Positions 1,943-27,605 of a stretch of 64,000 nt of DNA are shown one piece after another. The notes beneath the pieces are model-generated. The model made no database searches. It was not told the origin of the DNA and saw only the letters and a list, made by a program, of their open reading frames with translations. The position numbers were made by a program, and so were the translations under genes. The stretch is from positions 87 through 64,086 of the forward strand of contig DASTUJ010000138.1 of the NCBI GenBank assembly GCA_035759705.1. The letters run 5' to 3'. Numbering within the stretch: position 1 is the stretch's first letter; each line of letters opens with the position of its first letter. Source of the DNA: Actinomycetota bacterium (lineage in GTDB: Bacteria; Actinomycetota; CADDZG01; JAHWKV01).

Positions 1943-3400
1943 GTGGACCTGGTAACCGGCTTCGGCCTCATCGGTGTGACCGTGATCGTGTCCGGCCTGG
2001 TGGCCGGATTGGTCGACCGGGGGCCGGTATCGTTCCCGATGATCTTTCTCGGGCTGGGCCTGGCGCTCGGGGCTGCCGGCGTGCTGGACGTGGGTGTGCA
2101 CGACCCGTCGCTGGAGGTCGTCGCCGCGCTCACCCTGTCCCTGGTCCTGTTCATGGATGCCTTCAGCCTGGAGGGCGGCGGGTCGCGCAAGGACTGGCTT
2201 GTCCCGGCGCTGGTCCTCGGCCCCGGCACGGCGCTTGTGATCCTGGTGGTCGCCGGGTCGGCCATCCTGCTGTTCGACGTGCGGCCGATCTCCGCTTTCA
2301 TCCTGGGGGCGGTTCTCTCCTCCACCGACGCGGTGGTTCTCAGAGATGTCGTCCGGGACGACCGGGTGCCGCGGCCGGTGAGGCGGGTCCTGTCGGTGGA
2401 GGCGGGGACCAACGACATCATCGTCCTGCCCCTCCTGCTCGTCCTGATCGCAGTGGCCGGGGGCGACGCTTCCGGCAACGGCGCCGGAGACTGGGCGCTG
2501 TTCGGCCTGAAGATCTTTGTCATAGGACCCGCCGTGGGCGCTGCGGTGGGCGCGGTCGGCGCCTGGCTGATGGCACGAGCCGACGCCCGGCACTCGGTCC
2601 GGCGCGAGTACCAGGCGCTCTACGGCGTCGGCCTCGTTTTGAGCTCATATGCCGCCGCGGTCGCGGTCGGGGGCGACGGCTTTTTGGCTGCGTTCTTTGC
2701 CGGCCTGGCGATCACGGCCCTCGACCAGACCTTGTGCGACTGCTTCCTGGAGTTCGGCGATGCTGCGGCGGAGATTTCGATGCTGTTGACGTTCGTCCTG
2801 TTTGGCGCCCTGCTCTCGACCGAGCTGGGTTCGGTCCCGCTGGTGAGCGGCCTGGCCCTCGCCGCTATCGTGATCTTCGTGGCCCGGCCGCTCGCCATCG
2901 AACTGGTGCTCAGCGTGCGGCAGGCCGCTCTCAGCCGGGCTGCCCGGGCGTTCATCGCCTGGTTCGGCCCCCGGGGCCTCAACTCCCTGCTTTTCGCTCT
3001 GCTCGTAGTGGCAGGCGAGGTGCCGGAGGGCGAGTTCCTCCTGGCGGTGACCGGCATGGTGGTCCTGGTGTCGGTTGTGGGGCACGGCGCCAGCGCGACG
3101 CCGGTGTCCTCCTGGTACGGCCGCAAGGTTGCAGCGGAGGTGCTGGCGGAGGAGCGCTTCGGCACCGCCACCGGCCTGTTCGAGCAGAAGGAGCAGACCT
3201 CCGACCGCATCAGCCCGGCCCGCCTGGCCGAGATGATGGAGAGCGACGACTCCCCGCTCGTGGTGGATGTCCGAACCCGATCGCAGCATGACCGCGATGC
3301 GGTGAAGATCCCCGGCAGCATCCGGGTTCTGCCCGACTCGATCCCCGAGTGGGTCTCCGACCAGCTGAAGGACCGGCCCTACGTCCTGTACTGCACCTGA
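1943..3400 (+). CDS. CPA1-family Na+(K+)/H+ antiporter fused to a C-terminal rhodanese-like domain, which is interrupted by an in-frame TGA
   Basis: The N-terminal ~400 aa are multi-TM with an NhaP/CPA1-like GAVLSSTDAV motif. The C-terminus (SPLVVDVRTRSQHDRDAVKIPGSIRVLP...YVLYCT) is a rhodanese fold that stops at TGA 3398-3400, inside the active-site loop. Confidence 0.75.
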   Translation: MDLVTGFGLIGVTVIVSGLVAGLVDRGPVSFPMIFLGLGLALGAAGVLDVGVHDPSLEVVAALTLSLVLFMDAFSLEGGGSRKDWLVPALVLGPGTALVILVVAGSAILLFDVRPISAFILGAVLSSTDAVVLRDVVRDDRVPRPVRRVLSVEAGTNDIIVLPLLLVLIAVAGGDASGNGAGDWALFGLKIFVIGPAVGAAVGAVGAWLMARADARHSVRREYQALYGVGLVLSSYAAAVAVGGDGFLAAFFAGLAITALDQTLCDCFLEFGDAAAEISMLLTFVLFGALLSTELGSVPLVSGLALAAIVIFVARPLAIELVLSVRQAALSRAARAFIAWFGPRGLNSLLFALLVVAGEVPEGEFLLAVTGMVVLVSVVGHGASATPVSSWYGRKVAAEVLAEERFGTATGLFEQKEQTSDRISPARLAEMMESDDSPLVVDVRTRSQHDRDAVKIPGSIRVLPDSIPEWVSDQLKDRPYVLYCT

Positions 3401-3538
3401 CCGAGCGAGGCCACCAGCGCCCGTGCGGCGCAACACATGAAGTCGAAGGGGTTCAGCCGGGTGTGGGCCCTGGAGGGAGGCCTCGACGCGTGGAGGGCCG
3501 GCTTCCCGGTGGAGGAGATGGTCACGCCGTCTGTCTAG
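3401..3538 (+). other. In-frame continuation of the rhodanese domain after TGA (PSEATSARAAQHMKSKGFSRVWALEGGLDAWRAGFPVEE...). It is either a readthrough or selenocysteine extension, or a pseudogenised tail
   Basis: The 45 codons after the TGA stay in frame and encode the conserved rhodanese C-terminal helix/strand (K.GF..V..L.GG...W..G.PV), ending at TAG 3536-3538. Confidence 0.5.
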
Positions 3539-5055
3539 AACTGGTCCCGGAGGGTCACCAGCTGGTCGACCGGGGCGTAGTCGTCGGTCAGCACCCGGGC
3601 TTTGCCCATGAACGACTTATACCGATCGCCCTCGATCAGGGTGAACTCCGGCGCCCGAGCGGCCAGCTCGGCCCGGATCGCCTCCACCGGCAGGGGGCTT
3701 TCCGACCCGACCATCACGAGGTTGTCGCCGCTACGGCCGGCGGCGACGTCGGGCCGGGTGATCAGGGCGACGTGCGGGAACACCTCCGCGATCGTCGCCG
3801 CCTCGGCCCGGGCGAACAGAAGGGGCGCAAAGTCGATGACGTTCACCAGGTAGATGCCGTCCGGGCGCAGGATGCGGCGGATCTGTTGGGCGGTCTCGAC
3901 CGTCGTCAGGTGCCAGGGCACCGCCAGCCCGCCGAAGGCGTCCTCCACGACGACGTCGCGGCTGGCGTCGGCCTGGTCTCTGAGAGCCACCCGGCCGTCA
4001 CCCACGTGCGCCTCGATGCCGTCGCCCAACTTCAGGCCGAGGCTCTTGACATCCAGGTCGACCACCCCCTGGTCGATCTCCAGCACCAGGTTGTCGGATC
4101 CGGGCCGGGTGAAGTCGAGGTACCTGGGGATGCTGAACCCACCGCCGCCGATGTGAAGCGCATCTATCGGCTTCTCCGGCTTGGCTGCATCGATCACCGC
4201 GGCAAATGAGCGGGTGTAGGAGAACTCCAGGTAGGAGGGGTCCTCGATGTCCACGTAGGAGTGAAAGAGCGTGTCCATGCGCAGCGTCCGTCCCGAGGGC
4301 CGGGTCGGGTCCACGACCACCTTGGCGCAGTGGTACGCCGTCTCCACGTCACACGGCGGAGGGAAGAACGACGAAGCACCGACTCCGGCCGCGGCGAACA
4401 GCAAAAGCCCGTAGGCCGCACGGTTGGCCCGCAGCTTGACTGTCAATATCAGCCCGAGCACGATCAGCGTGCCCCCCAGGGCCAGCAGGATGCGGCTCGT
4501 GGGCAGCTCGGCGACCAGCAGGAAGCCGGTGGCGAAGGTTGCCACCAGTGCCCCTAGCGTGCCGACTCCCGAAAGTCGCCCGACCACCCGGCCGGTCTCG
4601 TCCAGAGCCTGCAGCCGCAGCTTTACGACCAGCGGAGTGACCGCCGCCAGCAGGGCGGCCGGGGCGAGGATGGACACCGCCGCCATTACCAGAACCGAGG
4701 TGGCGTTGCCTCCCCGGACCTGCTCGCCGGTGAACCGCACTGCGGGCCCAACGAACAACACCAGGATGCCGGCCAGCAGGATCATCGGGCCCAGCAGCTT
4801 TTGTGGAGGCACCGCGTCGGCAGCGCGTCCGCCCAACCACGCGCCGAGGGCAATGGCGCCGAGGGCGAAGCCGATGACCCCGGTGCTCATCTCCAGCGTG
4901 AGCCCCAGGTAGGGCGCCACCAGGCGAAGGCTGAGGATCTCGAGCATGAGGATCGCCCCCGAGGTGATGAAGACCAGCCACCCCGCAGCGGCGGCGTTCA
5001 GCCCGGGGGCATCAACCGGCGTTGGTGCAGGCTCTTGCGGCGCGTCGTTATCCAA
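3535..5055 (-). CDS. speE: Membrane-anchored spermidine/spermine synthase-like aminopropyltransferase
   Basis: The N-terminal ~220 aa are polytopic. The C-terminal domain has the spermidine-synthase fold motifs (DALHIGGGGFSIPRYL, VVEDAFGGLAVPWHLTT, LRPDGIYLVNVID). Confidence 0.8.
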   Translation of the reverse strand: MDNDAPQEPAPTPVDAPGLNAAAAGWLVFITSGAILMLEILSLRLVAPYLGLTLEMSTGVIGFALGAIALGAWLGGRAADAVPPQKLLGPMILLAGILVLFVGPAVRFTGEQVRGGNATSVLVMAAVSILAPAALLAAVTPLVVKLRLQALDETGRVVGRLSGVGTLGALVATFATGFLLVAELPTSRILLALGGTLIVLGLILTVKLRANRAAYGLLLFAAAGVGASSFFPPPCDVETAYHCAKVVVDPTRPSGRTLRMDTLFHSYVDIEDPSYLEFSYTRSFAAVIDAAKPEKPIDALHIGGGGFSIPRYLDFTRPGSDNLVLEIDQGVVDLDVKSLGLKLGDGIEAHVGDGRVALRDQADASRDVVVEDAFGGLAVPWHLTTVETAQQIRRILRPDGIYLVNVIDFAPLLFARAEAATIAEVFPHVALITRPDVAAGRSGDNLVMVGSESPLPVEAIRAELAARAPEFTLIEGDRYKSFMGKARVLTDDYAPVDQLVTLRDQF

Positions 5056-5245
5056 GGAGTCGGCTCGATTCGTCTTGAGGGGTAACTCAGCCGATACTAC
5101 GACCGAAGCCGCACGAAGCCCTCAAAACGGCCGCGCCAAAGCGCCTGAAAGGCAGGTGGTGCAGGGGGAGGGACGTTCGAAAAGAAGGGGAAACTCACGC
5201 CGGTTACTCCTGCTTCAGTTTCGCCGGCGTGTTGGGTTTGTTTGT

Positions 5246-8616: not shown

Positions 8617-8700
8617 GCGGAAAGTGTAGTCCGATCTCGTCCGGGAAACGTTCACAATGAAAGCTGCAGCTTTTTGCGGGCGAAGACGGGAGGACCGGGC

Positions 8701-10227
8701 ATGGAAGAGTCGGAGATCCTCGGCCGGTTCGACGACCTTCAGAAGAAGCTGGCCCCCTTCTGGAGCACCGCCGACGACCTCAACAAGCCACCGAACACCA
8801 TCTTCGTGATCCCGTCGATCAGCTACAAGGCCGCGGTCCTCAGCCAGCTGGAGAGCCTGCAGCAGTACGAGGAGAGGTTTCTCATCCTCTTCATGCTGCT
8901 GCGGAACCCACGCACCCGCCTGGTCTACGTCACCTCCGAGCAGACCCTTCCGAACGTTGTCGACTACTACCTGAACCTGCTGCCCGGCGTCATCGCGAGC
9001 CACGCCCGCCAGCGACTGTTCCTGGTCTCGACACTGGACGGGACACTTCGGCCGCTGACCGAGAAGCTGCTCGAGCGGCCGCGCCTGATCGCCCGCCTGA
9101 AGAGCCTGGTGATCGACCCGGACCGGGCCTACATCATCCCGTTCAACACCACCCACCTGGAGCGTGAGCTGGCGGTGAAGATGGACGTGCCCATCCTGGG
9201 GGCCGACCCCAGGTTCGGGCCTCTCGGAACCAAGAGCGGCTGCCGGCGCCTTTTCGCCGAGGAGGGGGTTCCCCACCCCGCGGGCTTCGAGGACCTGGCG
9301 ACCATGCCGGACGTGACCGCCGCAATCGCCAAGCTCCGGGCGGAGAAGCCGGGGATGCAGGAGCTGCTGGTCAAGACCAACGAGGGGGTTAGCGGTTGGG
9401 GGAACGCCCCCATCGACCTCGGCGGGCTGCCCGCCCCGGGGGACCCCGGTGAAGCCGAGGCGATCGAGCGGGCGGTGCGGGACCAGATCGGATTCAAGTA
9501 CCAGGCGTTCGAGGAGCAGTTCGTGCACGAGGGCGGAATCGTCGAGGAGATGGTGATCGGCGACGAGGTTCGCAGCCCCAGCGCCCAGATGTTGATCGAC
9601 CCGCAAGGCGGCGTGCAGATGCTTTCGACCCACGACCAGCTGCTCGGGGGCCCGGCGGGGCAGGTCTACCAGGGCTGCCAGTTCCCGGCCGACCGGGCCT
9701 ATGCGGTGAAGATCACGCAGGAGGCGGAAAAGATCGGGCGCCGGCTCGCCAAGGAGGGAGCGGTGGGCCGGGCGGCCATCGACTTCGTATGCATCCGCAC
9801 CCCCTCCGGGGACTGGGAGGCGTACGCGATCGAGCTGAACCTGCGCCAGGGCGGGACCACGCACCCGTTCCTCACGCTGCAGTTCCTCACCGACGGCAGG
9901 TACGTCCCCGACCAGGGCATATTCGTCGCCCCCAACGGCCGGCGGAAGTACTTCGTCGCCTCCGACCACGTCGAGTCGCCCCTGTACCGGGGTTTCACCC
10001 CGGACGACCTTTTCGACATTGTGGTGCGCCACCGGCTCCACTTCGACCACGCGGCCCAGACCGGGGTGGTGTTCCACATGGTGAGCGCCCTACCCGAGGT
10101 CGGCCGAACCGGGCTTACCGCGGTGGCCGACTCTGCGGAGGAGGCCCAGTGGATGTACGACGCGGTGATCCGGGTGCTGGACAACGAGGCGAAGGACGCT
10201 TTTGAGGAGCGACCGCCGTTCGGCTAA
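8701..10227 (+). CDS. ATP-grasp superfamily protein (PGM1-like peptide/amide ligase family, tentative)
   Basis: 508 aa with coding-like composition. There is a GGGAGG SD 8 nt before ATG 8701. The central region has an ATP-grasp-like fold signature, and the family assignment is by recall only. Confidence 0.6.
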   Translation: MEESEILGRFDDLQKKLAPFWSTADDLNKPPNTIFVIPSISYKAAVLSQLESLQQYEERFLILFMLLRNPRTRLVYVTSEQTLPNVVDYYLNLLPGVIASHARQRLFLVSTLDGTLRPLTEKLLERPRLIARLKSLVIDPDRAYIIPFNTTHLERELAVKMDVPILGADPRFGPLGTKSGCRRLFAEEGVPHPAGFEDLATMPDVTAAIAKLRAEKPGMQELLVKTNEGVSGWGNAPIDLGGLPAPGDPGEAEAIERAVRDQIGFKYQAFEEQFVHEGGIVEEMVIGDEVRSPSAQMLIDPQGGVQMLSTHDQLLGGPAGQVYQGCQFPADRAYAVKITQEAEKIGRRLAKEGAVGRAAIDFVCIRTPSGDWEAYAIELNLRQGGTTHPFLTLQFLTDGRYVPDQGIFVAPNGRRKYFVASDHVESPLYRGFTPDDLFDIVVRHRLHFDHAAQTGVVFHMVSALPEVGRTGLTAVADSAEEAQWMYDAVIRVLDNEAKDAFEERPPFG

Positions 10228-20272: not shown

Positions 20273-20767
20273 ATGAAGAAGCTCACGGGACTACTGCTCG
20301 TGACTGTGATAGCAGGAGCGATCTTCGCCGCTCTGGCCCTCCCGGCGTTCGCTGCTAGCAGCAACGCAGGTGGAGTTGTTGTCGAGTCCGGCGATGCACC
20401 TGACTGTGTTGGCGGAAGCTGTGGCGGCGTCATCGTCGAGGACCCGGCTGGCGTCGGCCCCGACTGCACCGGCGGCAACTGCGGCGGAAGCATCTGCCAG
20501 GGCCCCGACTGCGGCAGCTGCGCAGGCGGTAACTGCGGCGGAAGCATCAGCGGTCCGGGAACGGCCGTTGACCACGGTAAGAAGCACGACGCACCGGCCA
20601 AGGCCGCTGGCGCAAAGGCACTGCCCCGCACGGGTATCCCGACCGCAGCCACCCTGGCACTCGGCGCCGGAATGATCCTGGTTGGTCTGTTCTTCACCTT
20701 CGTCGAGCACCCCTCGACCAAGGTCGCAATGGCAGCCATGACCTACCGCCCGAAGCGTCGCCTCTAA
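20273..20767 (+). CDS. Small secreted Cys/Gly-rich protein with LPXTG-type C-terminal sorting signal
   Basis: A signal peptide (MKKLTGLLLVTVIAGAIFAALALPAFA) is followed by three DC(x)GG(S/N)CGG repeats and then LPRTG, a hydrophobic segment and a KRR tail. A strong SD (AGGAGG) is present, and an intrinsic terminator follows immediately. Confidence 0.7.
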   Translation: MKKLTGLLLVTVIAGAIFAALALPAFAASSNAGGVVVESGDAPDCVGGSCGGVIVEDPAGVGPDCTGGNCGGSICQGPDCGSCAGGNCGGSISGPGTAVDHGKKHDAPAKAAGAKALPRTGIPTAATLALGAGMILVGLFFTFVEHPSTKVAMAAMTYRPKRRL

Positions 20768-20784
20768 TACACCGATTCAACCAA

Positions 20785-20816
20785 GCAGCCCCCGGAGACG
20801 GGGGCTGCTTTTTTTG
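20785..20816 (+). terminator. Rho-independent terminator (GCAGCCCCCG-GAGA-CGGGGGCTGC followed by a T7 run)
   Basis: A perfect 10-bp GC stem with a 4-nt loop is followed by TTTTTTT, directly after the stop of the LPXTG gene. Confidence 0.75.
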
Positions 20817-20902: not shown

Positions 20903-22471
20903 TTGGCTCAAGATCAACTGCCCGCACCAACTCCGGCAACCCGGTCGATGCGCAGCCGGGTCGTCTCGTCGTTGTTTGCTCCGCTCGACCTTGCCGCCCT
21001 TGCCTACTTCCGGATCGTGTTCGGCCTGGTGGTCTGCTGGGAGTCCTGGAGATACTTCAAGCTCGGGTGGATCGACGCCTTCTTCGTCGATCCTCCGTTC
21101 CTGTTCACCTACTGGCCGTTTCACTTCGTAGACCCGTGGCCGGGCTGGGGGATGAAGGCTCACTTCCTGGTCCTCGGCGCCGCAGGCATCCTGGTCGCCC
21201 TGGGAGCGTTCTACCGGGCGTCCGCCTCGGTGCTGTTCGTTGCGATGACGTACTTCTTCCTGCTCGACAAGGCCAACTACCTCAACCACCTCTACCTGGT
21301 CTGCCTCCTCGCTTTTCTGATGATCTTCCTGCCCGCCCACCGGACGTGGTCGGTAGACGTCCGGAGGAAGCCGTCCCTTAGGGCAGACACCGCCCCGGCC
21401 TGGACCCTGTGGCTGCTTCGCTTCCAGCTGGCGCTTCCGTACTTCTTCGGGGGCATAGCCAAGCTGAACCCCGACTGGTTAAAAGGGGAGCCGCTCAGGA
21501 TGTGGCTGGCCGAGGACGTGGACTTTCCTCTCATCGGCCGGTTCTTCACCGAGGAGCCGGTCGTCAGGCTGATGACCTACGGCGCGTTGGCGCTGGACCT
21601 GCTGGTCGTCCTCTTCCTGCTGGCGTCCCGGAAAACCCGGCCCTTCGCATACGCCGCCGCAGTCGCTTTCCACTTCATGAACTCGAGGCTGTTCAACATC
21701 GGCATCTTCCCGTGGCTGATGATCGCAGGCACGGCAATCTTCTTTCCTCCCGACACCCCCAGACGGATTCTCGAGGACCTCCGGCGCCGGCCCGGCTCGC
21801 TGCGATCGATTGCATGGTGGATTGGGATGGCCGGCGGCGCTTGGCTCGGCTGGAAGCTGCCGACGACCTTCACGCTGCCCCAGGTGGCGATAGGCGGCCT
21901 CGGAATCGCAATCCTCTGCTGGAGCCTGGCCGAGCTGTTGCGGCCCCTACCGGCCGTTCCTGTGGCCTCCGAGCCGCAGCAGGAGAACGATCGGGCGACC
22001 GGGCCGGCGCTTCGCCCGCCCCGGCCGGTGCTCGCCCTTCTGGTCCTATGGGTCGCCGTGCAGGTGTTGCTGCCTTTCAGGCACCTGGCCGTGCCCGGCA
22101 ACGTCTACTGGACCGAGGAGGGACAGCGGTTCTCATGGATGATGCTCGTTCGGTCCAAGGAGGGCCGGGTCATCTACGAGGTGACCGACGTGAGCCGGGG
22201 TCAGACGTGGGAGCTGTTCCCCGAGAACTACCTGACCCGAAGGCAATCCCTGACGCTTAGGGACAAGCCCGACATGATCGTTCAGTTCGCCCACTACATC
22301 CAGGACCGGCTCCGGGAAGACGGCTACCCGGAGGTGGAGATACGGGCAATCACCGCCATCTCGTTGAACAACAAGCCGGAGCGCCCGGTCATCGACCGGA
22401 ACGTCGACCTGACGAAGGTAAAGGTTCCCTGGTTGGGCAAAGCAGACTGGATCACGGCTGAGGAGCCCTAG
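20903..22471 (+). CDS. HTTM-domain protein (vitamin K-dependent gamma-glutamyl carboxylase-like)
   Basis: A 522-aa polytopic protein. The N-terminal HTTM signature region is LAALAYFRIVFGLVVCWESWRYF...FHFMNSRLFNIGIFPWLMIAG. The C-terminal soluble domain (YWTEEGQRFSWMMLV) is as in bacterial VKGC homologues. Confidence 0.8.
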   Translation: MAQDQLPAPTPATRSMRSRVVSSLFAPLDLAALAYFRIVFGLVVCWESWRYFKLGWIDAFFVDPPFLFTYWPFHFVDPWPGWGMKAHFLVLGAAGILVALGAFYRASASVLFVAMTYFFLLDKANYLNHLYLVCLLAFLMIFLPAHRTWSVDVRRKPSLRADTAPAWTLWLLRFQLALPYFFGGIAKLNPDWLKGEPLRMWLAEDVDFPLIGRFFTEEPVVRLMTYGALALDLLVVLFLLASRKTRPFAYAAAVAFHFMNSRLFNIGIFPWLMIAGTAIFFPPDTPRRILEDLRRRPGSLRSIAWWIGMAGGAWLGWKLPTTFTLPQVAIGGLGIAILCWSLAELLRPLPAVPVASEPQQENDRATGPALRPPRPVLALLVLWVAVQVLLPFRHLAVPGNVYWTEEGQRFSWMMLVRSKEGRVIYEVTDVSRGQTWELFPENYLTRRQSLTLRDKPDMIVQFAHYIQDRLREDGYPEVEIRAITAISLNNKPERPVIDRNVDLTKVKVPWLGKADWITAEEP

Positions 22472-22532: not shown

Positions 22533-23095
22533 TCAGTCGCAGCCGTCGGGGTTACGATCCTCGACGCAGACATCGCCGCTTTGTCCGCTGGAGCCGGTTG
22601 CCCCGCTTCGAGCACCGTTGCCTCCGCGGCCGCTGGTGCCGCCGTCGGCTCCGTCGGCGCCGGTGCCGCTGTCGGCATCGCCTCCGCCTCCGGCTCCGCC
22701 CTGTCCGCCGGCGCCATCGCCCCCGCTGCCTCCGCCGCCGTCCGCGCTGTCGTCCCCGGAGCTGCTGTCCGAGCTGCCGCCGGAGCCGCCTCCTCGCCCA
22801 CTGCCGCTCCGCCGGAGCCTCCGTCACCGCTGCCGCCGACCGAGGCGCCGCTGGGACCTCCCGAGCCGCCTCCACCGCCGGACCCGGAGTCGCCCCCGCT
22901 CCCGCCGCCGCCCGAGGACCCCGTGGCGCCGCTGGCGCCGGATTCGAGGATGAACTCCTGCTCGCACCCCGTGGAGTCCGGGCCCGGACCGGAGGTCTCG
23001 CAAAAGTTTTCGGCTGATGCGGTTGAGATCAACGATGCCCCGAGAAGGGCGGCCGAGATCAATGCAACGGCCAAAAGCGTTCTGCGAGTTTTCAT
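22533..23095 (-). pseudogene. Paralog A of the secreted Gly-rich Cys-loop protein family, apparently frameshifted
   Basis: The N-terminus (signal peptide plus AENFCETSGPGPDSTGCEQEFILES) is in one frame from 23095. The conserved C-terminus (GNGARSGATGSSGQSGDVCVEDRNPDGCD*) is in another frame ending at 22533. The frames switch near 22805-22825 within the GGx repeats. Confidence 0.45.
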
Positions 23096-23301: not shown

Positions 23302-23333
23302 AAAAAAGGGGCGGCCCGAAGGCCGCCCCTTTT
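23302..23333 (-). terminator. Hairpin terminator (AAAAGGGGCGGCC-CGAA-GGCCGCCCCTTTT), bidirectional-type
   Basis: A perfect 13-bp stem with A/T flanks lies 3' of paralog B. Confidence 0.7.
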
Positions 23334-23355: not shown

Positions 23356-24021
23356 TTAGCAGTCGTTGTTGTTGTCAGCGTCTGCGCAAGCGTCGCCGGA
23401 GTCGCCGGAGTCGCCGGTGGCGCCGCTACGGGCACCGTTGCCGCCGTTACCGGAACGTCCGCCTTCGCCGCCTTCGCCGCCGTCGCCGGTGTCGGCGTCG
23501 CCGCCGTTACCTTCGCCGCCGTCGCCGCCGGTGCCGTCGCCGCCACCTGCGCCGTTGCAGCCGCCGGACTCGTCGCCGGAGCCGTCACATGCGCCGTCGC
23601 CGCCGAGGCCGCCTGCGCCGCCGCCGCCGTCGCCGCCGCCGGTGGTTGCACCGGCGTAGTCGCCGCTACCACCAGCTGCGCCGCCGCCGCCGCCTGCGCC
23701 GCCGTTGCCGCCGCCGTCGCCGCCAGCACCGCCGGCACCTGCGCCGCCGCCGCCGCCGTCGCCGCTACCGCCGGCTGCTGCGCCGGATGCTCCGCCTGCG
23801 CCGCCGTCGCCGGCTGCGCCGGACTCGCCACCGTCGCCACCAGCGCCGGACTCGCCGGTTTCGCCGGTTGCGCCGGTCTCAAGGCCGAACTCCTGGGAGC
23901 ACTCGGTTGTGTCGGGGCCCGGGCCGTTTGCGTCGCAGTTGTTCTCTGCGGCTGCGGTCGGGATGAGCAGTGCTGAAACCATGGCAAGCATCATGAGCAT
24001 GCCAAACATTTTCTTGATCAT
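23356..24021 (-). CDS. Secreted Gly/Ala/Asp-rich (PGRS-like) repeat protein with three conserved Cys pairs, paralog B
   Basis: Signal peptide MIKKMFGMLMMLAMVSALLIPTAAA, then ENNCDANGPGPDTTECSQEF, ~150 aa of GGxGGxGG repeats, a middle CDGSGDESGGC pair and a C-terminal CADADNNNDC*. The SD is GGAGG. Confidence 0.8.
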   Translation of the reverse strand: MIKKMFGMLMMLAMVSALLIPTAAAENNCDANGPGPDTTECSQEFGLETGATGETGESGAGGDGGESGAAGDGGAGGASGAAAGGSGDGGGGGAGAGGAGGDGGGNGGAGGGGGAAGGSGDYAGATTGGGDGGGGAGGLGGDGACDGSGDESGGCNGAGGGDGTGGDGGEGNGGDADTGDGGEGGEGGRSGNGGNGARSGATGDSGDSGDACADADNNNDC

Positions 24022-24270: not shown

Positions 24271-24300
24271 AAAGAGGGGCGGCAATTGCCGCCCCTCTTT
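24271..24300 (-). terminator. Hairpin terminator (AAAGAGGGGCGGC-AATT-GCCGCCCCTCTTT)
   Basis: A perfect 13-bp stem 3' of paralog C. Confidence 0.7.
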
Positions 24301-24316: not shown

Positions 24317-24988
24317 TTAGCAGTCGTTGTTGTTGTCGGCCTCGGCACAAACGTCGCCGGAGGTGCCGGAGTCGCCGGTGCGGCCGCTGCGAGCGCCGTT
24401 GCCGCCGTTACCGGACTGACCGCCCTCGCCGCCTTCGCCGCCGTCGCCGGTGTCGGCGTCGCCGCCGTTACCTTCGCCGCCGTCGCCGCCGGTGCCGCTT
24501 CCGCCACCTGCGCCGTTGCATCCAGCGCTGGTGTCGGTTGCGCTGCCGTCACATGCGCCGTCGCCGCCTGCGCCACCTGCGCCGCCGCCGCCGTCGCCGC
24601 CGCCGGTGGTTGCACCGGAGTAAGCGCCACTGCCGCCGGCTGCTCCGCCGCCGCCGCCTGCGCCGCCGTTGCCGCCGCCGTCGCCGCCGGCACCGCCGGC
24701 ACCTGCGCCGCCGCCGCCGCCGTCGCCGCTACCGCCTGCTGCTGCGCCGCTTGCGCCGCCGTCGCCGCCGGCACCAGCGTCGCCCGAGGCTCCGCCTTCG
24801 CCGCCGTCGCCGCTTGCGCCGGTTGCGCCGGTTTCGCCGGACTCGAGCTCAAAAGCCTGCTCGCAGCCGGTCTCGTCAGCGCCGGGACCGTTTGCGTCAC
24901 AGTTGTTCTCCGCAGATGCGGTGGGAACGAGCAGTGCGGCCGACAGGGCCAGCATCAGCATCATTCCGAAGAGGTTCTTGACCTTCAT
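24317..24988 (-). CDS. Secreted PGRS-like Gly-rich Cys-pair protein, paralog C
   Basis: About 90% identical to paralog B, with the same three Cys pairs and signal peptide MKVKNLFGMMLMLALSAALLVPTASA. Confidence 0.8.
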   Translation of the reverse strand: MKVKNLFGMMLMLALSAALLVPTASAENNCDANGPGADETGCEQAFELESGETGATGASGDGGEGGASGDAGAGGDGGASGAAAGGSGDGGGGGAGAGGAGGDGGGNGGAGGGGGAAGGSGAYSGATTGGGDGGGGAGGAGGDGACDGSATDTSAGCNGAGGGSGTGGDGGEGNGGDADTGDGGEGGEGGQSGNGGNGARSGRTGDSGTSGDVCAEADNNNDC

Positions 24989-25180: not shown

Positions 25181-25210
25181 AAAACGGCGGCCCCGAAGGG
25201 CCGCCGTTTG
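25181..25210 (-). terminator. Hairpin terminator (AAAACGGCGGCCC-CGAA-GGGCCGCCGTTTG)
   Basis: A 13-bp stem 3' of paralog D. Confidence 0.7.
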
Positions 25211-25227: not shown

Positions 25228-25896
25228 TTAGCAGTTGTTGTTGTTGTCAGCGTCTGCACAAGCGTCGCCGGAGTCGCCGGAGTCGCCGCTACGGCCGCTG
25301 CGTGCGCCGTTGCCGCCGTTACCGGAACGTCCGCCTTCGCCGCCTTCGCCGCCGTCGCCGGTGTCGGCGTCGCCGCCGTTACCTTCGCCGCCGTCGCCGC
25401 CGGTGCCGTCGCCGCCTGCGCCGCCGTTGCATCCAGCGCTGGTGTCGGTTGCGCTGCCGTCACATGCGCCGTCGCCGCCTGCGCCGCCTGCGCCGCCGCC
25501 GCCGTCGCCGCCGCCGGTGGTTGCACCGGCCCAAGCGCCACTGCCGCCGGCTGCTCCGCCGCCGCCACCTGCGCCGCCGTTGCCGCCGCCGTCGCCGCCG
25601 GCACCGCCGGCACCTGCGCCGCCGCCGCCGCCGTCGCCGCTACCGCCGGCTGCTGCGCCGGATGCTCCACCTGCGCCGCCGTCGCCTGCTGCGCCGGAGT
25701 CGCCGCCTGCGCCGCCGTCACCGGTTGCGCCGGTCTCGCCGGTCTCGCCGGTGGTGAGCTCGAGCTCCTGCGAACACTCGGTGGTGTCCTCGCCCGGGCC
25801 GTTGGCGTCACAGTTGTTCTCAGCTGCTGCGGTAGGAACCAGAAGTGCGGCCGCGAGGGCCAGCATCATCAGGGTGCCCATGAGTTTCTTGATCAT
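25228..25896 (-). CDS. Secreted PGRS-like Gly-rich Cys-pair protein, paralog D
   Basis: Starts at MIKKLMGTLMMLALAAALLVPTAAA (ATG 25896). It is near-identical to B and C, and the C-terminus is CADADNNNNC*. Confidence 0.8.
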   Translation of the reverse strand: MIKKLMGTLMMLALAAALLVPTAAAENNCDANGPGEDTTECSQELELTTGETGETGATGDGGAGGDSGAAGDGGAGGASGAAAGGSGDGGGGGAGAGGAGGDGGGNGGAGGGGGAAGGSGAWAGATTGGGDGGGGAGGAGGDGACDGSATDTSAGCNGGAGGDGTGGDGGEGNGGDADTGDGGEGGEGGRSGNGGNGARSGRSGDSGDSGDACADADNNNNC

Positions 25897-26350
25897 CTGC
25901 GTGATTCCTTCCTTTGATGTTGCCTTGCTTATGCGCTGCATCCGCCTCCTGGACCTTGCCGCCAGGGGCGAAATTCTTTTGCGAGACTTCGCAACTACTG
26001 GTAAATCCCCGCCGTATCTCGATGCAAAACTTTGGTGTAGACGAAACTAGCGCCCAGTTAAATGAGCACGCCGAATGTTACCGCTCCAAACCGGCCGGTT
26101 CAAGGAATTGTTTCAGAACCCCGCTCAGCGTTCGCAGATCCTCCACCGCCGTTTCCGCGTATCGAGTTTACGGGCGTGCGGGGAGTATGTGAACGGGAGG
26201 ATCGACGGAAATCCGGCGTCTCGCAGCCGAGTTAGACTCTTAAGGCATTCGCCGAAGAGCAACAGCGGCCGGGAGACAGATTTGACGGAGAAGAATTCCA
26301 GGCGGGACGACAGGATCCTCGATCCCGAGCTCCTCAACGACGCGGCCTCG

Positions 26351-26818
26351 ATGTCCACCACCGACCTGCGCAGCCGCCGGGACGAGGTCCGTGAGCTGGA
26401 AGCGGAGTTCAGCTATGCCCGCCGCCTTCTGCAGGGCAAGATCGACATCCTGGCCGCCGAGCTGAAGCGGCGCTCGGAGGGCGGAGAGGCCGGCATGGGA
26501 GACCTGGTCAGCCGGCTGCCCTCCATCCTTGCCGACGAGCCCCGCTCCGGCGGCGCCACCCGCCTGCTGGAGTCCGATCTCCCTCGCAACGCCGGCAAGT
26601 TCCGCAGGTACACCGAGAGGCTGGCTACCGGACTGGCACACATCGAGACCTCAACCCCCGAAGAGCTCACCGCGATGGTCACCGAGCTGGGAGCCGAGGA
26701 GCGAAAGGTCTCCGAAGACCGCCGGCGGGCCCAAAAGATCATCGACGGGCTGAACGCAGAGCTGGTGAGGCGGTACCAGAAGGGTGATGAGGACCCCTCG
26801 GCTCTTTTGAGCAGCTAG
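26351..26818 (+). CDS. Hypothetical coiled-coil protein (start uncertain)
   Basis: The ORF extends from 26075, but coding-like composition and charged heptad-like repeats begin around ATG 26351 (MSTTDLRSRRDEVRELEAEF). No motif was recognised. Confidence 0.45.
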   Translation: MSTTDLRSRRDEVRELEAEFSYARRLLQGKIDILAAELKRRSEGGEAGMGDLVSRLPSILADEPRSGGATRLLESDLPRNAGKFRRYTERLATGLAHIETSTPEELTAMVTELGAEERKVSEDRRRAQKIIDGLNAELVRRYQKGDEDPSALLSS

Positions 26819-26825
26819 CGGGCCG

Positions 26826-27605
26826 GTGGAACCCAGCGCTTTTGAGGTGAACGAACCCCCCTCCCAGTCCGGCCCCCCGGCCGAGTTCGAGACGGAGACC
26901 GACTACCGGGCCGAGCTTGAACGAACCCGCTCGCAGCTCCTGGTGTTCGCCCGGGACATGAGTGCGGTTTACCAGAGGAAGCGGGAGCACGAACAAAAGC
27001 TCGGCGCCCTGCTCGAGGAGCTCCGAACCGACTACCTCTCGATTGTGGAGACCCTCGCCCTGGTGGTGGAGGCCAAGGACCAGTACACCGCCAACCACCT
27101 CGAACGGTGCAAGCGTTACGGCATCGCGCTGACCAGCCGTATCGATGCGGCGATGATCACCCCGCAGCTCCAGTACGGATTCCTCCTGCACGACGTCGGC
27201 AAGATCGGCATCCCGGAGGCGATCCTCATGAAGCCCGGACCGCTGACCTCCGAGGAGATGACCGTCATGAGAACCCACCCCTTGATCGGGGTACAGATCG
27301 TCGCCCCGATGCGCCGGGTGCTGGACGAGGTGACGGTGGAGGTCATCCGCCACCACCACGAGCGGTTCGACGGCAACGGGTACCCGGACGGCCTCAAAGG
27401 GGAGGACATCCCGCTGTCGGCCAGGATCTTCAGCGTCGTGGACAGCTTCGACGCCATGACCACGAACCGGCCCTACCGCAAGGCCCTTCCCCTGGATGAG
27501 GCTCTCACCCGCCTCAGGGCCGAAGCGGGCAAGCAGTTCGATCCCGATGTCGTGGCCGAGTTCGAGCTGCTGATGCAGAGCATCCAGTCTCCCGAGGACT
27601 GGTAA
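26826..27605 (+). CDS. HD-GYP domain c-di-GMP phosphodiesterase
   Basis: The HD motif (LLHDVGKIGIP) and GYP motif (HHERFDGNGYPDGL) are both present. The start is GTG. Confidence 0.9.
   Translation: MEPSAFEVNEPPSQSGPPAEFETETDYRAELERTRSQLLVFARDMSAVYQRKREHEQKLGALLEELRTDYLSIVETLALVVEAKDQYTANHLERCKRYGIALTSRIDAAMITPQLQYGFLLHDVGKIGIPEAILMKPGPLTSEEMTVMRTHPLIGVQIVAPMRRVLDEVTVEVIRHHHERFDGNGYPDGLKGEDIPLSARIFSVVDSFDAMTTNRPYRKALPLDEALTRLRAEAGKQFDPDVVAEFELLMQSIQSPEDW

Follow-up and report, generated by a model that had tools for sequence, protein, structure and literature searches.

The human vitamin K-dependent gamma-carboxylase (GGCX) has clients with a propeptide, whose recognition element comprises Phe -16, Ala -10 and Leu -6, and it anchors a dipeptide in which a hydrophobic or long aliphatic residue precedes the target Glu (PMC12647623). 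Tyr395 and Arg436 anchor this Glu and the residue before it (Eup), whereas N159/H160, K218, W223 and F299 have roles in CO2 trapping, Glu-carboxylate binding and deprotonation of vitamin K hydroquinone (KH2). Clamp B, which contains R513, and the C-terminal domain (CTD, residues 603-758) form the propeptide cleft together with clamp A, and the same paper remarks in general terms on conservation of the enzyme family in bacteria (PMC12647623). MloH, a bacterial relative of the vitamin K-dependent carboxylase (VKDC) in malonomycin biosynthesis, is described as carboxylating an aspartyl unit (Law et al. 2018, as cited in PMC12647623 and PMC12186529). The literature that we searched reported no bacterial protein substrate for a vitamin K-dependent gamma-carboxylase (VKGC) homologue, and MloH was the sole bacterial function assigned. 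SdpB is an HTTM-domain membrane protein needed to mature the Sec-exported toxin precursor SdpC. Here we analyze a 64,000-nucleotide stretch of DNA from an Actinomycetota bacterium (the window), in which four tandem minus-strand genes at 22.5-25.9 kb, paralogs A to D, encode secreted glycine-rich proteins beside the gene of a VKGC homologue. The gene under study is that of paralog B (23356..24021, minus strand, 221 aa).

A sequence-only reading had proposed that the mature amino terminus of these proteins resembles a miniature Gla domain. We establish here the anatomy of the genes, their conservation pattern, the homology of the enzyme with conservation of its catalytic core, and the linkage of the genes. 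Tentatively, we favor a reading in which the paralogs are a new family of secreted, disordered, polyanionic Gly-rich proteins and are clients of the neighboring carboxylase homologue, with their conserved signal peptide as candidate docking element.

Secreted glycine-rich paralogs and their signal peptide

The extent of paralog B was taken from its open reading frame (ORF) and from alignment. The protein begins with MIKKMFGMLMMLAMVSALLIPTAAA, a signal peptide (23947..24021, minus strand) assigned from the sequence and by orthologue comparison, followed directly by ENNCDANGPGPDTTECSQEFGLETGATGETGESG. This amino-terminal module (N-module; 23845..23946, minus strand) contains six Glu, the Cys pair C4/C16 and Q-x-F-x-[LI]-E-[ST]-G, and then runs into G-x-[TS] triplets. 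Paralogs C (24317..24988, 223 aa) and D (25228..25896, 222 aa from the homologous start MIKKLMG) are ORFs on the same strand; D also has a longer start, an ATG at 25941, whose use is unlikely. Paralog A (22533..23095, minus strand) is of a short type and is frameshifted, with its N-part in one frame (22802-23095) and its C-part in another (22533-22808).

Paralog B is 45% Gly, lacks Lys and carries a net charge of -31. Across the family, Gly makes up 40-46% and Asp plus Glu about 15%; basic residues are very scarce, and each member has two or three short Cys loops. Net charges of B to D were -28 to -31, with no Lys and 2-3 Arg each; paralog A, scored up to its frameshift, had a net charge of -8 and no Arg in the scored part. 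Three Cys pairs are present in B, C and D (the N-terminal C4/C16, a middle pair and the C-terminal ACADADNNNDC) and two in A-type proteins. Acidic residues are spread over the whole protein, beyond the N-terminus too. None of the four paralogs matched a family in Pfam (E<=0.01) or NCBIfam, and AlphaFold2 (AF2) gave no fold for B from an alignment of the four (pLDDT 45); the protein is predicted to be disordered. A lipoprotein reading was rejected, as position +1 has no lipobox Cys. Alternative-frame ORFs over the paralogs, Ala- or Arg-rich and on both strands, were discarded as shadows because a signal peptide, the Cys positions and a dN/dS below 1 across orthologues were found only in the reported frame.

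The 25 residues ahead of the Glu cluster form a typical n-h-c signal peptide. The predicted AxA cleavage site of B obeys the -3/-1 rule, although it could be off by one residue, and an AxA-type site stands at the same position in every relative, with core-family homology beginning directly after it. The signal peptide of B is identical at 25/25 residues to that of its orthologue in a related locus, L001, at a dS of 0.39. Among B-, C- and D-type proteins (L001, L169, P0122-P0133) its consensus is M-x-K-K-[LMV]-[FM]-G-x-L-M-M-L-A-[ML]-x-[SA]-A-L-L-[IV]-P-T-A-x-A. Between orthologues, amino acid identity was 92-100% in the signal peptide (dN/dS 0.04-0.09), 77-88% in the Gly-rich body (dN/dS 0.27-0.48) and 49-69% in the N-module (dN/dS 0.25-1.1), and the difference in conservation between signal peptide and N-module gave P values of 0.0006-0.01 in Fisher tests. 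The constrained signal peptide, which is not a propeptide, may be the best candidate for an element that docks onto the membrane enzyme.

A full-length homology search with B returned 8000 word-sharing candidates, none of them significant, because low-complexity Gly words swamp the index. The 68-aa N-terminus gave one match. A 63-position N-terminal profile, run against 1.84 billion representatives, gave only 13 matches, mostly to truncated sequences, so the family is small and lineage-restricted. Judged from these sequences, all its members belong to a single lineage of uncultured Actinomycetota from soil.

The carboxylase homologue, gene linkage and the client reading

The gene at 20903..22471 (plus strand) encodes a 522-aa VKGC homologue in which an HTTM membrane domain is joined to a short extracytoplasmic one. 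It matched the Pfam families HTTM (PF05090) at 1.1e-84 and VKGC_lumenal_dom (PF22777) at 1.6e-41, and phmmer aligned it to human GGCX from the PDB with an E value of 4.6e-40. Its AF2 model had a pLDDT of 82 and a pTM of 0.83, and in the PDB Foldseek matched this model to GGCX chains alone, with an E value of 1e-17, a TMq of 0.71 and, normalized to the human chain, a TMt of about 0.55. By profile, sequence and predicted fold, the window enzyme is a genuine VKGC homologue. Human N159/H160, K218, W223 and F299 align to N128/H129, K187, W192 and F269; across 24 bacterial homologues N128/H129, K187 and F269 never vary, and W192 is present in at least 90%. The alignment suggests that the chemistry has plausibly been retained and that substrate recognition via a propeptide cleft has not. 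By homology to the topology of GGCX, the extracytoplasmic side of the enzyme and the Sec signal of the paralogs would place both in the same compartment.

At enzyme residues 403-412 (window 22100-22140), bacterial homologues read W-T-E-E-G-[QH]-[RNK]-[FY]-[SA]-W, versus W390-T-N-G-L-Y395-G-Y-S-W399 in the human enzyme. Every bacterial homologue aligned has another residue in place of the Glu-anchoring Tyr, and two additional, invariant Glu at what is presumed to be the substrate site. The VKGC family is large: 1878 matches were obtained at E<1e-10, with at least 595 matching stretches in species-representative genomes from many phyla. A metagenome scan with the single enzyme sequence gave no match, and one with the clade alignment gave only more distant homologues, at most 58% identical over the best segment.

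Relatives of the locus were reached via the enzyme (L001, L084-L087, L088, L169, L171, L170 and L003). A gene of the Gly-rich family stood beside the enzyme gene in 8/8 sequenced clade loci, whose enzymes are 58-71% identical to that of the window. A ninth contig, P0002, has an enzyme 83% identical and neighbors of matching gene size, as judged from sizes alone. The layout is convergent in the window, L001, L084, L088, L169 and L171, and co-directional, resembling an operon, in L170 and L003. L001 is fully syntenic, with an enzyme 70% identical and three paralogs; L169 has three paralogs as well, and L088 has a fragment at the contig end. In L170 the order is family, family, VKGC, VKGC, family, with gaps of 100, 9 and 228 bp. 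Its tandem VKGC homologues of 527 and 516 aa (1317-2900 and 2910-4460) lie 9 bp apart and have Gly-rich family genes of the same orientation to either side (3-275, partial; 536-1216; 4689-5231). The coupling of family and VKGC homologue is consistent across these loci and specific to the lineage.

A wider survey covered about 160 distant VKGC loci from many phyla. Low-complexity poly-Asp/Gly/Ser proteins were found at most 1.5 kb from the VKGC gene in 11 loci, often as its immediate neighbor and mostly with a signal-like N-terminus by a crude pattern. Five such proteins lay beyond 2.5 kb, giving densities of 26.9 per Mb near the gene versus 7.8 per Mb (binomial P = 0.015). The sources were metagenome-assembled genomes (MAGs) labelled Latescibacterota, Bacteroidota, Rubrobacteraceae, cyanobacterium and Deltaproteobacteria, together with unassigned metagenome contigs. 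These neighbors include L032 7745-8767, L036 7506-12086, L059 1946-2545, L075 7532-8695, L076 5126-6004 and 3456-4259, L143 up to 1685, L149 4829-5872 and L163 2228-2779; cases just below the filter were L016 7672-8661, from an unclassified MAG, and L049 and L096 5616-5810, L049 being from Phycisphaerae. On the strength of these neighbors and the aspartyl precedent of MloH, the bacterial homologues may target both Asp and Glu where these lie in flexible, Gly-rich surroundings, which we regard as a lead and not as a result.

According to the client reading, the paralogs would be exported by Sec and act as clients of the carboxylase homologue. As the proteins are exported, or soon afterwards, their acidic residues would be carboxylated on the external side of the membrane, drawing on menaquinol, O2 and CO2, and a surface or matrix protein that is polyanionic from the start would thereby bind divalent cations more tightly. 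Our best guess for a single site within the N-module is the conserved [LI]-Glu at mature positions 22-23; GG[DE]GG sites in the body, which is better conserved, are just as possible. In a bolder form of the proposal, which we consider unlikely, a bacterial vitamin K (menaquinol)-dependent carboxylase would have in the paralogs its first ribosomally made protein substrates, recognized via the signal peptide in place of a propeptide, and bacterial homologues in many phyla may carboxylate Asp and Glu of disordered acidic tracts in secreted proteins. The poly-Asp/Gly neighbors from Bacteroidota, Latescibacterota, Phycisphaerae, Rubrobacteraceae, a cyanobacterium and a deltaproteobacterial MAG would agree with this form. 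Its products would be high-capacity Ca2+- or metal-binding surface proteins, and they could be a source for old, unexplained reports of carboxy-aspartate and aminomalonate in bacterial protein hydrolysates.

Several observations weigh against clients of this kind. The clade loci are related to one another, and the 8/8 adjacency does not amount to eight independent events. None of the approximately 160 more distant VKGC loci carried the Gly-rich family, which therefore cannot be the general substrate of the enzyme family. In the window, the paralogs have their own terminators and are not co-transcribed with the enzyme gene: a terminator-like hairpin follows each of the four genes, with coordinates of 23308..23329 (minus strand, with a T run) for B, 24276-24295 for C and 25186-25205 for D, so that each paralog looks monocistronic. 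Tyr395 of human GGCX corresponds to Gln408 in the window enzyme (Q or H across the bacterial family); human R436, R406 and H440 correspond to T451, K419 and K455, although in this lumenal alignment of about 25% identity the mapping of single residues is less certain. Clamp B and the C-terminal domain are absent, and the enzyme ends at about human residue 502. Most Glu of the N-module follow Gly or Cys and not a hydrophobic Eup residue. In work by Rishavy and colleagues from 2005, a Leptospira orthologue reportedly epoxidises vitamin K without carboxylating peptides. Finally, a remnant of the family in L173 (1201-1520), collapsed or twice frameshifted, consists of a signal peptide, ENNCDANGPGNDSTECSQEFDLETG, a short Gly run and GDVCAEAKNNNNNN. 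Its neighbors are pup on one side and, on the other, a BPSS1860-domain gene upstream of the two proteasome subunit genes, prcB/prcA; a terminator hairpin follows the remnant, and its 4.7 kb contig has no VKGC gene.

In a rival explanation, which we regard as a serious possibility, though a somewhat doubtful one, no carboxylation takes place. The paralogs would then be unmodified polyanionic envelope or matrix proteins with a cation-binding, hydrating or spacer role, the N-module would be a disulfide-stapled docking module, and the enzyme would carry out quinone epoxidation or another oxidation. Gene adjacency would reflect a shared envelope island or inherited synteny, and indeed GS, GlnR, NifU, Mrp, the LPXTG protein, VKGC, the paralogs, RsiG and HD are syntenic among clade members. 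The separate terminators, the L173 remnant away from any VKGC gene and the reported behavior of the Leptospira orthologue all fit this explanation, as does the interchange of Glu and Asp in the N-module, which suggests selection for charge and not for Glu. The N-module is also portable, being present on other architectures (P0123 and P0130). The explanation fits less well with L170, where the linkage has outlasted rearrangement to a co-directional cluster with a duplicated enzyme gene. It also fits less well with the conservation of the residues that trap CO2 and deprotonate vitamin K hydroquinone, and with the recurrence of acidic low-complexity secreted neighbors beside VKGC homologues in unrelated phyla.

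If the paralogs prove to be carboxylated, protein gamma-carboxylation would extend to bacteria, and substrates would be recognized without a propeptide. The enzyme would also be a minimal carboxylase for CO2-fixation engineering. If they are not, what the locus holds is nonetheless a new family of envelope proteins, disordered and polyanionic, whose signal peptide is conserved to an odd degree.

The amino-terminal module and the Gla domain

The six Glu of the N-module of B lie at mature positions 1, 15, 19, 23, 29 and 32, and the first Cys pair at C4/C16. Of all Glu in the approximately 196 mature residues, the first 34 residues hold 6/11 in B, 6/11 in C and 7/10 in D (binomial P = 0.006, 0.006 and 0.0003), and just 2 of the 19-22 Asp per protein. 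The sequence-only reading was right that six Glu and the first Cys pair come directly after the AxA site of B. It was right, too, that paralog A keeps this Glu/Cys pattern in its N-terminus, ENFCETSGPGPDSTGCEQEFILESG. The overall divergence that it noted in A is largely a frameshift near 22800-22810 on the minus strand: the N-part breaks off at about residue 98; the C-part, SGSGRGGG...GDVCVEDRNPDGCD up to the stop codon, is intact in the other frame, ends at 22533 and is 65% identical to the L001 orthologue. Intact orthologues of A are found in L001 (9560-10117), L084 (5783-6355) and L169 (2872-3447); in the window, either the gene has decayed to a pseudogene or a G/C-rich repeat was misassembled.

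Conservation of the N-module was scored on 11 ungapped core homologue sequences. C4, G8, D12, C16, Q18 and G25/28/31/34 are invariant, and no Glu position is, which counts against a miniature Gla domain. E1 and E23 were each kept in 9/11 sequences, E17 and E19 in 6/11 and E21 in 5/11. Glu exchanges with Asp, Ala, Ser and Thr; the middle positions of the triplets (26/29/32) hold E, D, A or S. Beyond the conserved motif Q-x-F-[DE]-[LI]-E-[ST]-G the module drifts and stays acidic. Distant family members have A, V, I, L or Q in place of E1, and their Cys loops have 2 to about 30 intervening residues, versus 11 in the core family. The N-module is the least conserved and fastest-evolving part of the protein, below both body and signal peptide, and a special constraint on the N-terminus, as claimed from the sequence of the paralogs, is therefore not borne out; what appears to be under selection is the scaffold of invariant Cys, Gly, Asp and Gln.

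The module also occurs on other architectures. In P0123 (80 aa) it is joined directly to the C-terminal Cys module with the Gly-rich body absent, in P0130 (299 aa) it stands on a protein with a collagen-like GPxGPx run and a C-terminal domain of unrelated type, and in P0127 a similar F-C-R-E-T-G-P-G-P-N...C loop is repeated six or more times.

We searched for the features of a true Gla domain. The Pfam Gla domain (PF00594) matched neither the paralogs, searched at E<=0.01, nor their isolated 49-residue N-termini, searched at E<=10. The PROSITE Gla signature GLA_1 is E-x2-[ERK]-E-x-C-x6-[EDR]-x10,11-[FYA]-[YW]. A regex scan of paralogs A to D found neither this signature nor ExxxExC, and no EE dipeptide; the Gla regex did match a human factor IX Gla sequence that served as positive control. 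Between signal peptide and Glu cluster there is no propeptide, since the cluster starts straight after the AxA site. About 9-12 positionally conserved Glu would be expected of a Gla domain, and the 11 core homologues have no such set. Across the 11 N-modules, Glu was preceded by G (13), C (9), L (7), Q (6), F (4), D (4), I (3), T (2) and V (1), and [LI]22-E23 was the sole Glu site both conserved and preceded by a hydrophobic residue. With no profile match, signature, EE dipeptide or propeptide, with a different Cys spacing and with only [LI]22-E23 fitting the Eup rule, the N-module is not a Gla domain by descent, by signature or by conservation pattern, as far as sequence comparison can tell. 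The resemblance stands for the Glu bias, the invariant Cys pair and the VKGC neighbor, and nothing beyond composition is Gla-like.

In the miniature Gla domain version, gamma-carboxylation of several specific Glu in the first 30 or so mature residues would create an N-terminal module that binds Ca2+ and is held together by a C4-C16 disulfide. The concentration of Glu in the first 34 residues, the invariant Cys pair and the retention of E1 and E23 in 9/11 sequences speak for it, and L/I before E23 is what the human dipeptide rule prefers (PMC12647623). Nearness to a membrane-anchored signal peptide would, in addition, put the segment by the active site. We nevertheless think it quite unlikely, since the module lacks a Gla profile match, the signature, an EE dipeptide and a propeptide, has no invariant Glu (E17, E19 and E21 in at most 6/11, positions 26/29/32 varying, distant members without E1) and evolves faster than the rest of the protein, and the enzyme has neither Tyr395 nor clamp B.

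Neighboring genes and comparison with described systems

Upstream of the enzyme gene and on the same strand lies the gene of a 164-aa Cys/Gly-rich LPRTG surface protein (20273..20767, plus strand), with a signal peptide, a sortase-type anchor, 10 Cys and repeats of V-[VI]-V-E-x(4-6)-PDC-x-GG-x-CGG. It gave weak matches to LPXTG profiles and no family assignment, and it may be a second client of the enzyme. The protein was found in 8 loci, with orthologues at L001 7329-7835, L084 3416-3919, L088 5459-5935, L169 700-1191 and L171 3763-4242, and is nearly invariant across the clade; its repeat core is almost identical where the enzymes are 58-71% identical to that of the window. This protein could be the real client and the Gly-rich paralogs bystanders or secondary clients, which would not exclude the other explanations and would agree with its constant position in all 8 convergent-layout loci (window and duplicate contigs counted), its conservation far above that of the enzyme itself and its two invariant Glu, each after a hydrophobic residue (VVVE, VIVE), but we hold it to be very unlikely, because a strong terminator separates its gene from the enzyme gene (20783..20810, plus strand, a hairpin of 12 pairs with a T run), because the sequenced part of the L170 cluster lacks it and has a Gly-rich family gene in the upstream position, and because it offers just two candidate Glu.

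Other genes flanking the locus in the window encode NifU, a Mrp/ParA-like ATPase, RsiG and an HD_5 protein (by Pfam), all of housekeeping or regulatory type, and the GC content is 63-70%. RsiG, an actinobacterial protein, agrees with an origin in an uncultured member of the Actinomycetota. A search of the whole window against Rfam gave no match, and when the regions 5' of the paralogs were aligned, terminators were the sole common element and no common regulatory element was seen. At 26075-27605 (plus strand), a gene for an RsiG-like anti-sigma factor is followed directly by one for an HD_5 (HD-GYP-type) phosphohydrolase. The pair is kept downstream of the paralogs in L001 and may be a c-di-GMP-linked regulatory pair. 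A 517-aa protein at 8674-10227 (plus strand), with IQCH-like ATP-grasp and PGM1_C domains of the pheganomycin peptide ligase type, is unrelated to the paralogs.

All-versus-all clustering of the neighbors of about 169 VKGC loci recovered a DCC1-like family upstream of the enzyme (clusters of 6 and 5 loci) and no other widely conserved partner. Immediately upstream of distant VKGC homologues only one neighbor recurs, this DCC1-like (DUF393) CxxC thiol-disulfide oxidoreductase (L014 5501-5926, L146 5560-5994, L172 5611-5874 and about 8 other distant loci). It is fused to a VKGC homologue in P0115, and the window cluster has no DCC1-like gene. A preprint models an HTTM/DCC1-DUF5819 complex (10.64898/2026.08.19.745780).

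Among known Gly-rich proteins, mycobacterial PE_PGRS, RTX GGxGxD, collagen-like G-x-T proteins such as BclA, and the snow-flea antifreeze protein are alike to the paralogs in composition only, through runs such as GGAGGDGGGNGGAGG and triplets of the form G-[EDA]-[TS]. PGRS and RTX repeats have been proposed to bind Ca2+. The paralogs lack the hydrophobic position of the RTX nonapeptide, a PE domain and Pro-rich collagen triplets. Membership in collagen-like, RTX, PGRS or polyglycine-II antifreeze families was rejected, as there were no profile matches and the protein is predicted to be disordered.

The B. subtilis SdpB/SdpC pair resembles the locus in that the gene of an HTTM-family membrane protein lies beside that of a small Sec-exported protein with a Cys pair. 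The window enzyme differs from SdpB in having a VKGC lumenal domain, and it scored 21.7 bits against the SdpB family (TIGR04033), for which the cutoff is 178.4. SdpC yields a 42-residue hydrophobic toxin, in contrast to the long Gly-rich polyanions here, and no SdpA-like or SdpC-like genes were seen among the genes read around the cluster. MloH is an actinomycete member of the same enzyme family with demonstrated carboxylase chemistry on an acidic (aspartyl) unit, which shows that bacterial homologues are able to carboxylate and do not have to be specific for Glu. The substrate of MloH is a small polyketide-nonribosomal peptide intermediate made in a gene cluster, whereas the window has no such cluster and its candidate clients are ribosomal, secreted and about 200 aa long.

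From metazoan Gla proteins the paralogs differ in having no sequence relationship to them, no Gla signature, no EE dipeptides and no propeptide. Gla domains have a Cys loop of 4 intervening residues, compared with 11 in the paralogs, and the Glu positions of the paralogs are unconserved and swap with Asp in a protein whose remainder is a disordered Gly/Asp-rich polyanion. The window enzyme, for its part, lacks clamp B, the C-terminal domain and Tyr395 of GGCX. The likeness to the metazoan system lies elsewhere. The paralogs are secreted and have, near the N-terminus, a short Cys loop and a segment biased toward Glu, and they adjoin the gene of a true structural and sequence homologue of GGCX with a conserved catalytic core; enzyme and putative client would both be in an extracytoplasmic compartment equivalent to the lumen. 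The locus thus offers a concrete candidate pair of enzyme and client, in which a compact carboxylase homologue with the catalytic core of GGCX and no propeptide clamp stands beside secreted proteins made almost wholly of Gly and carboxylatable residues.

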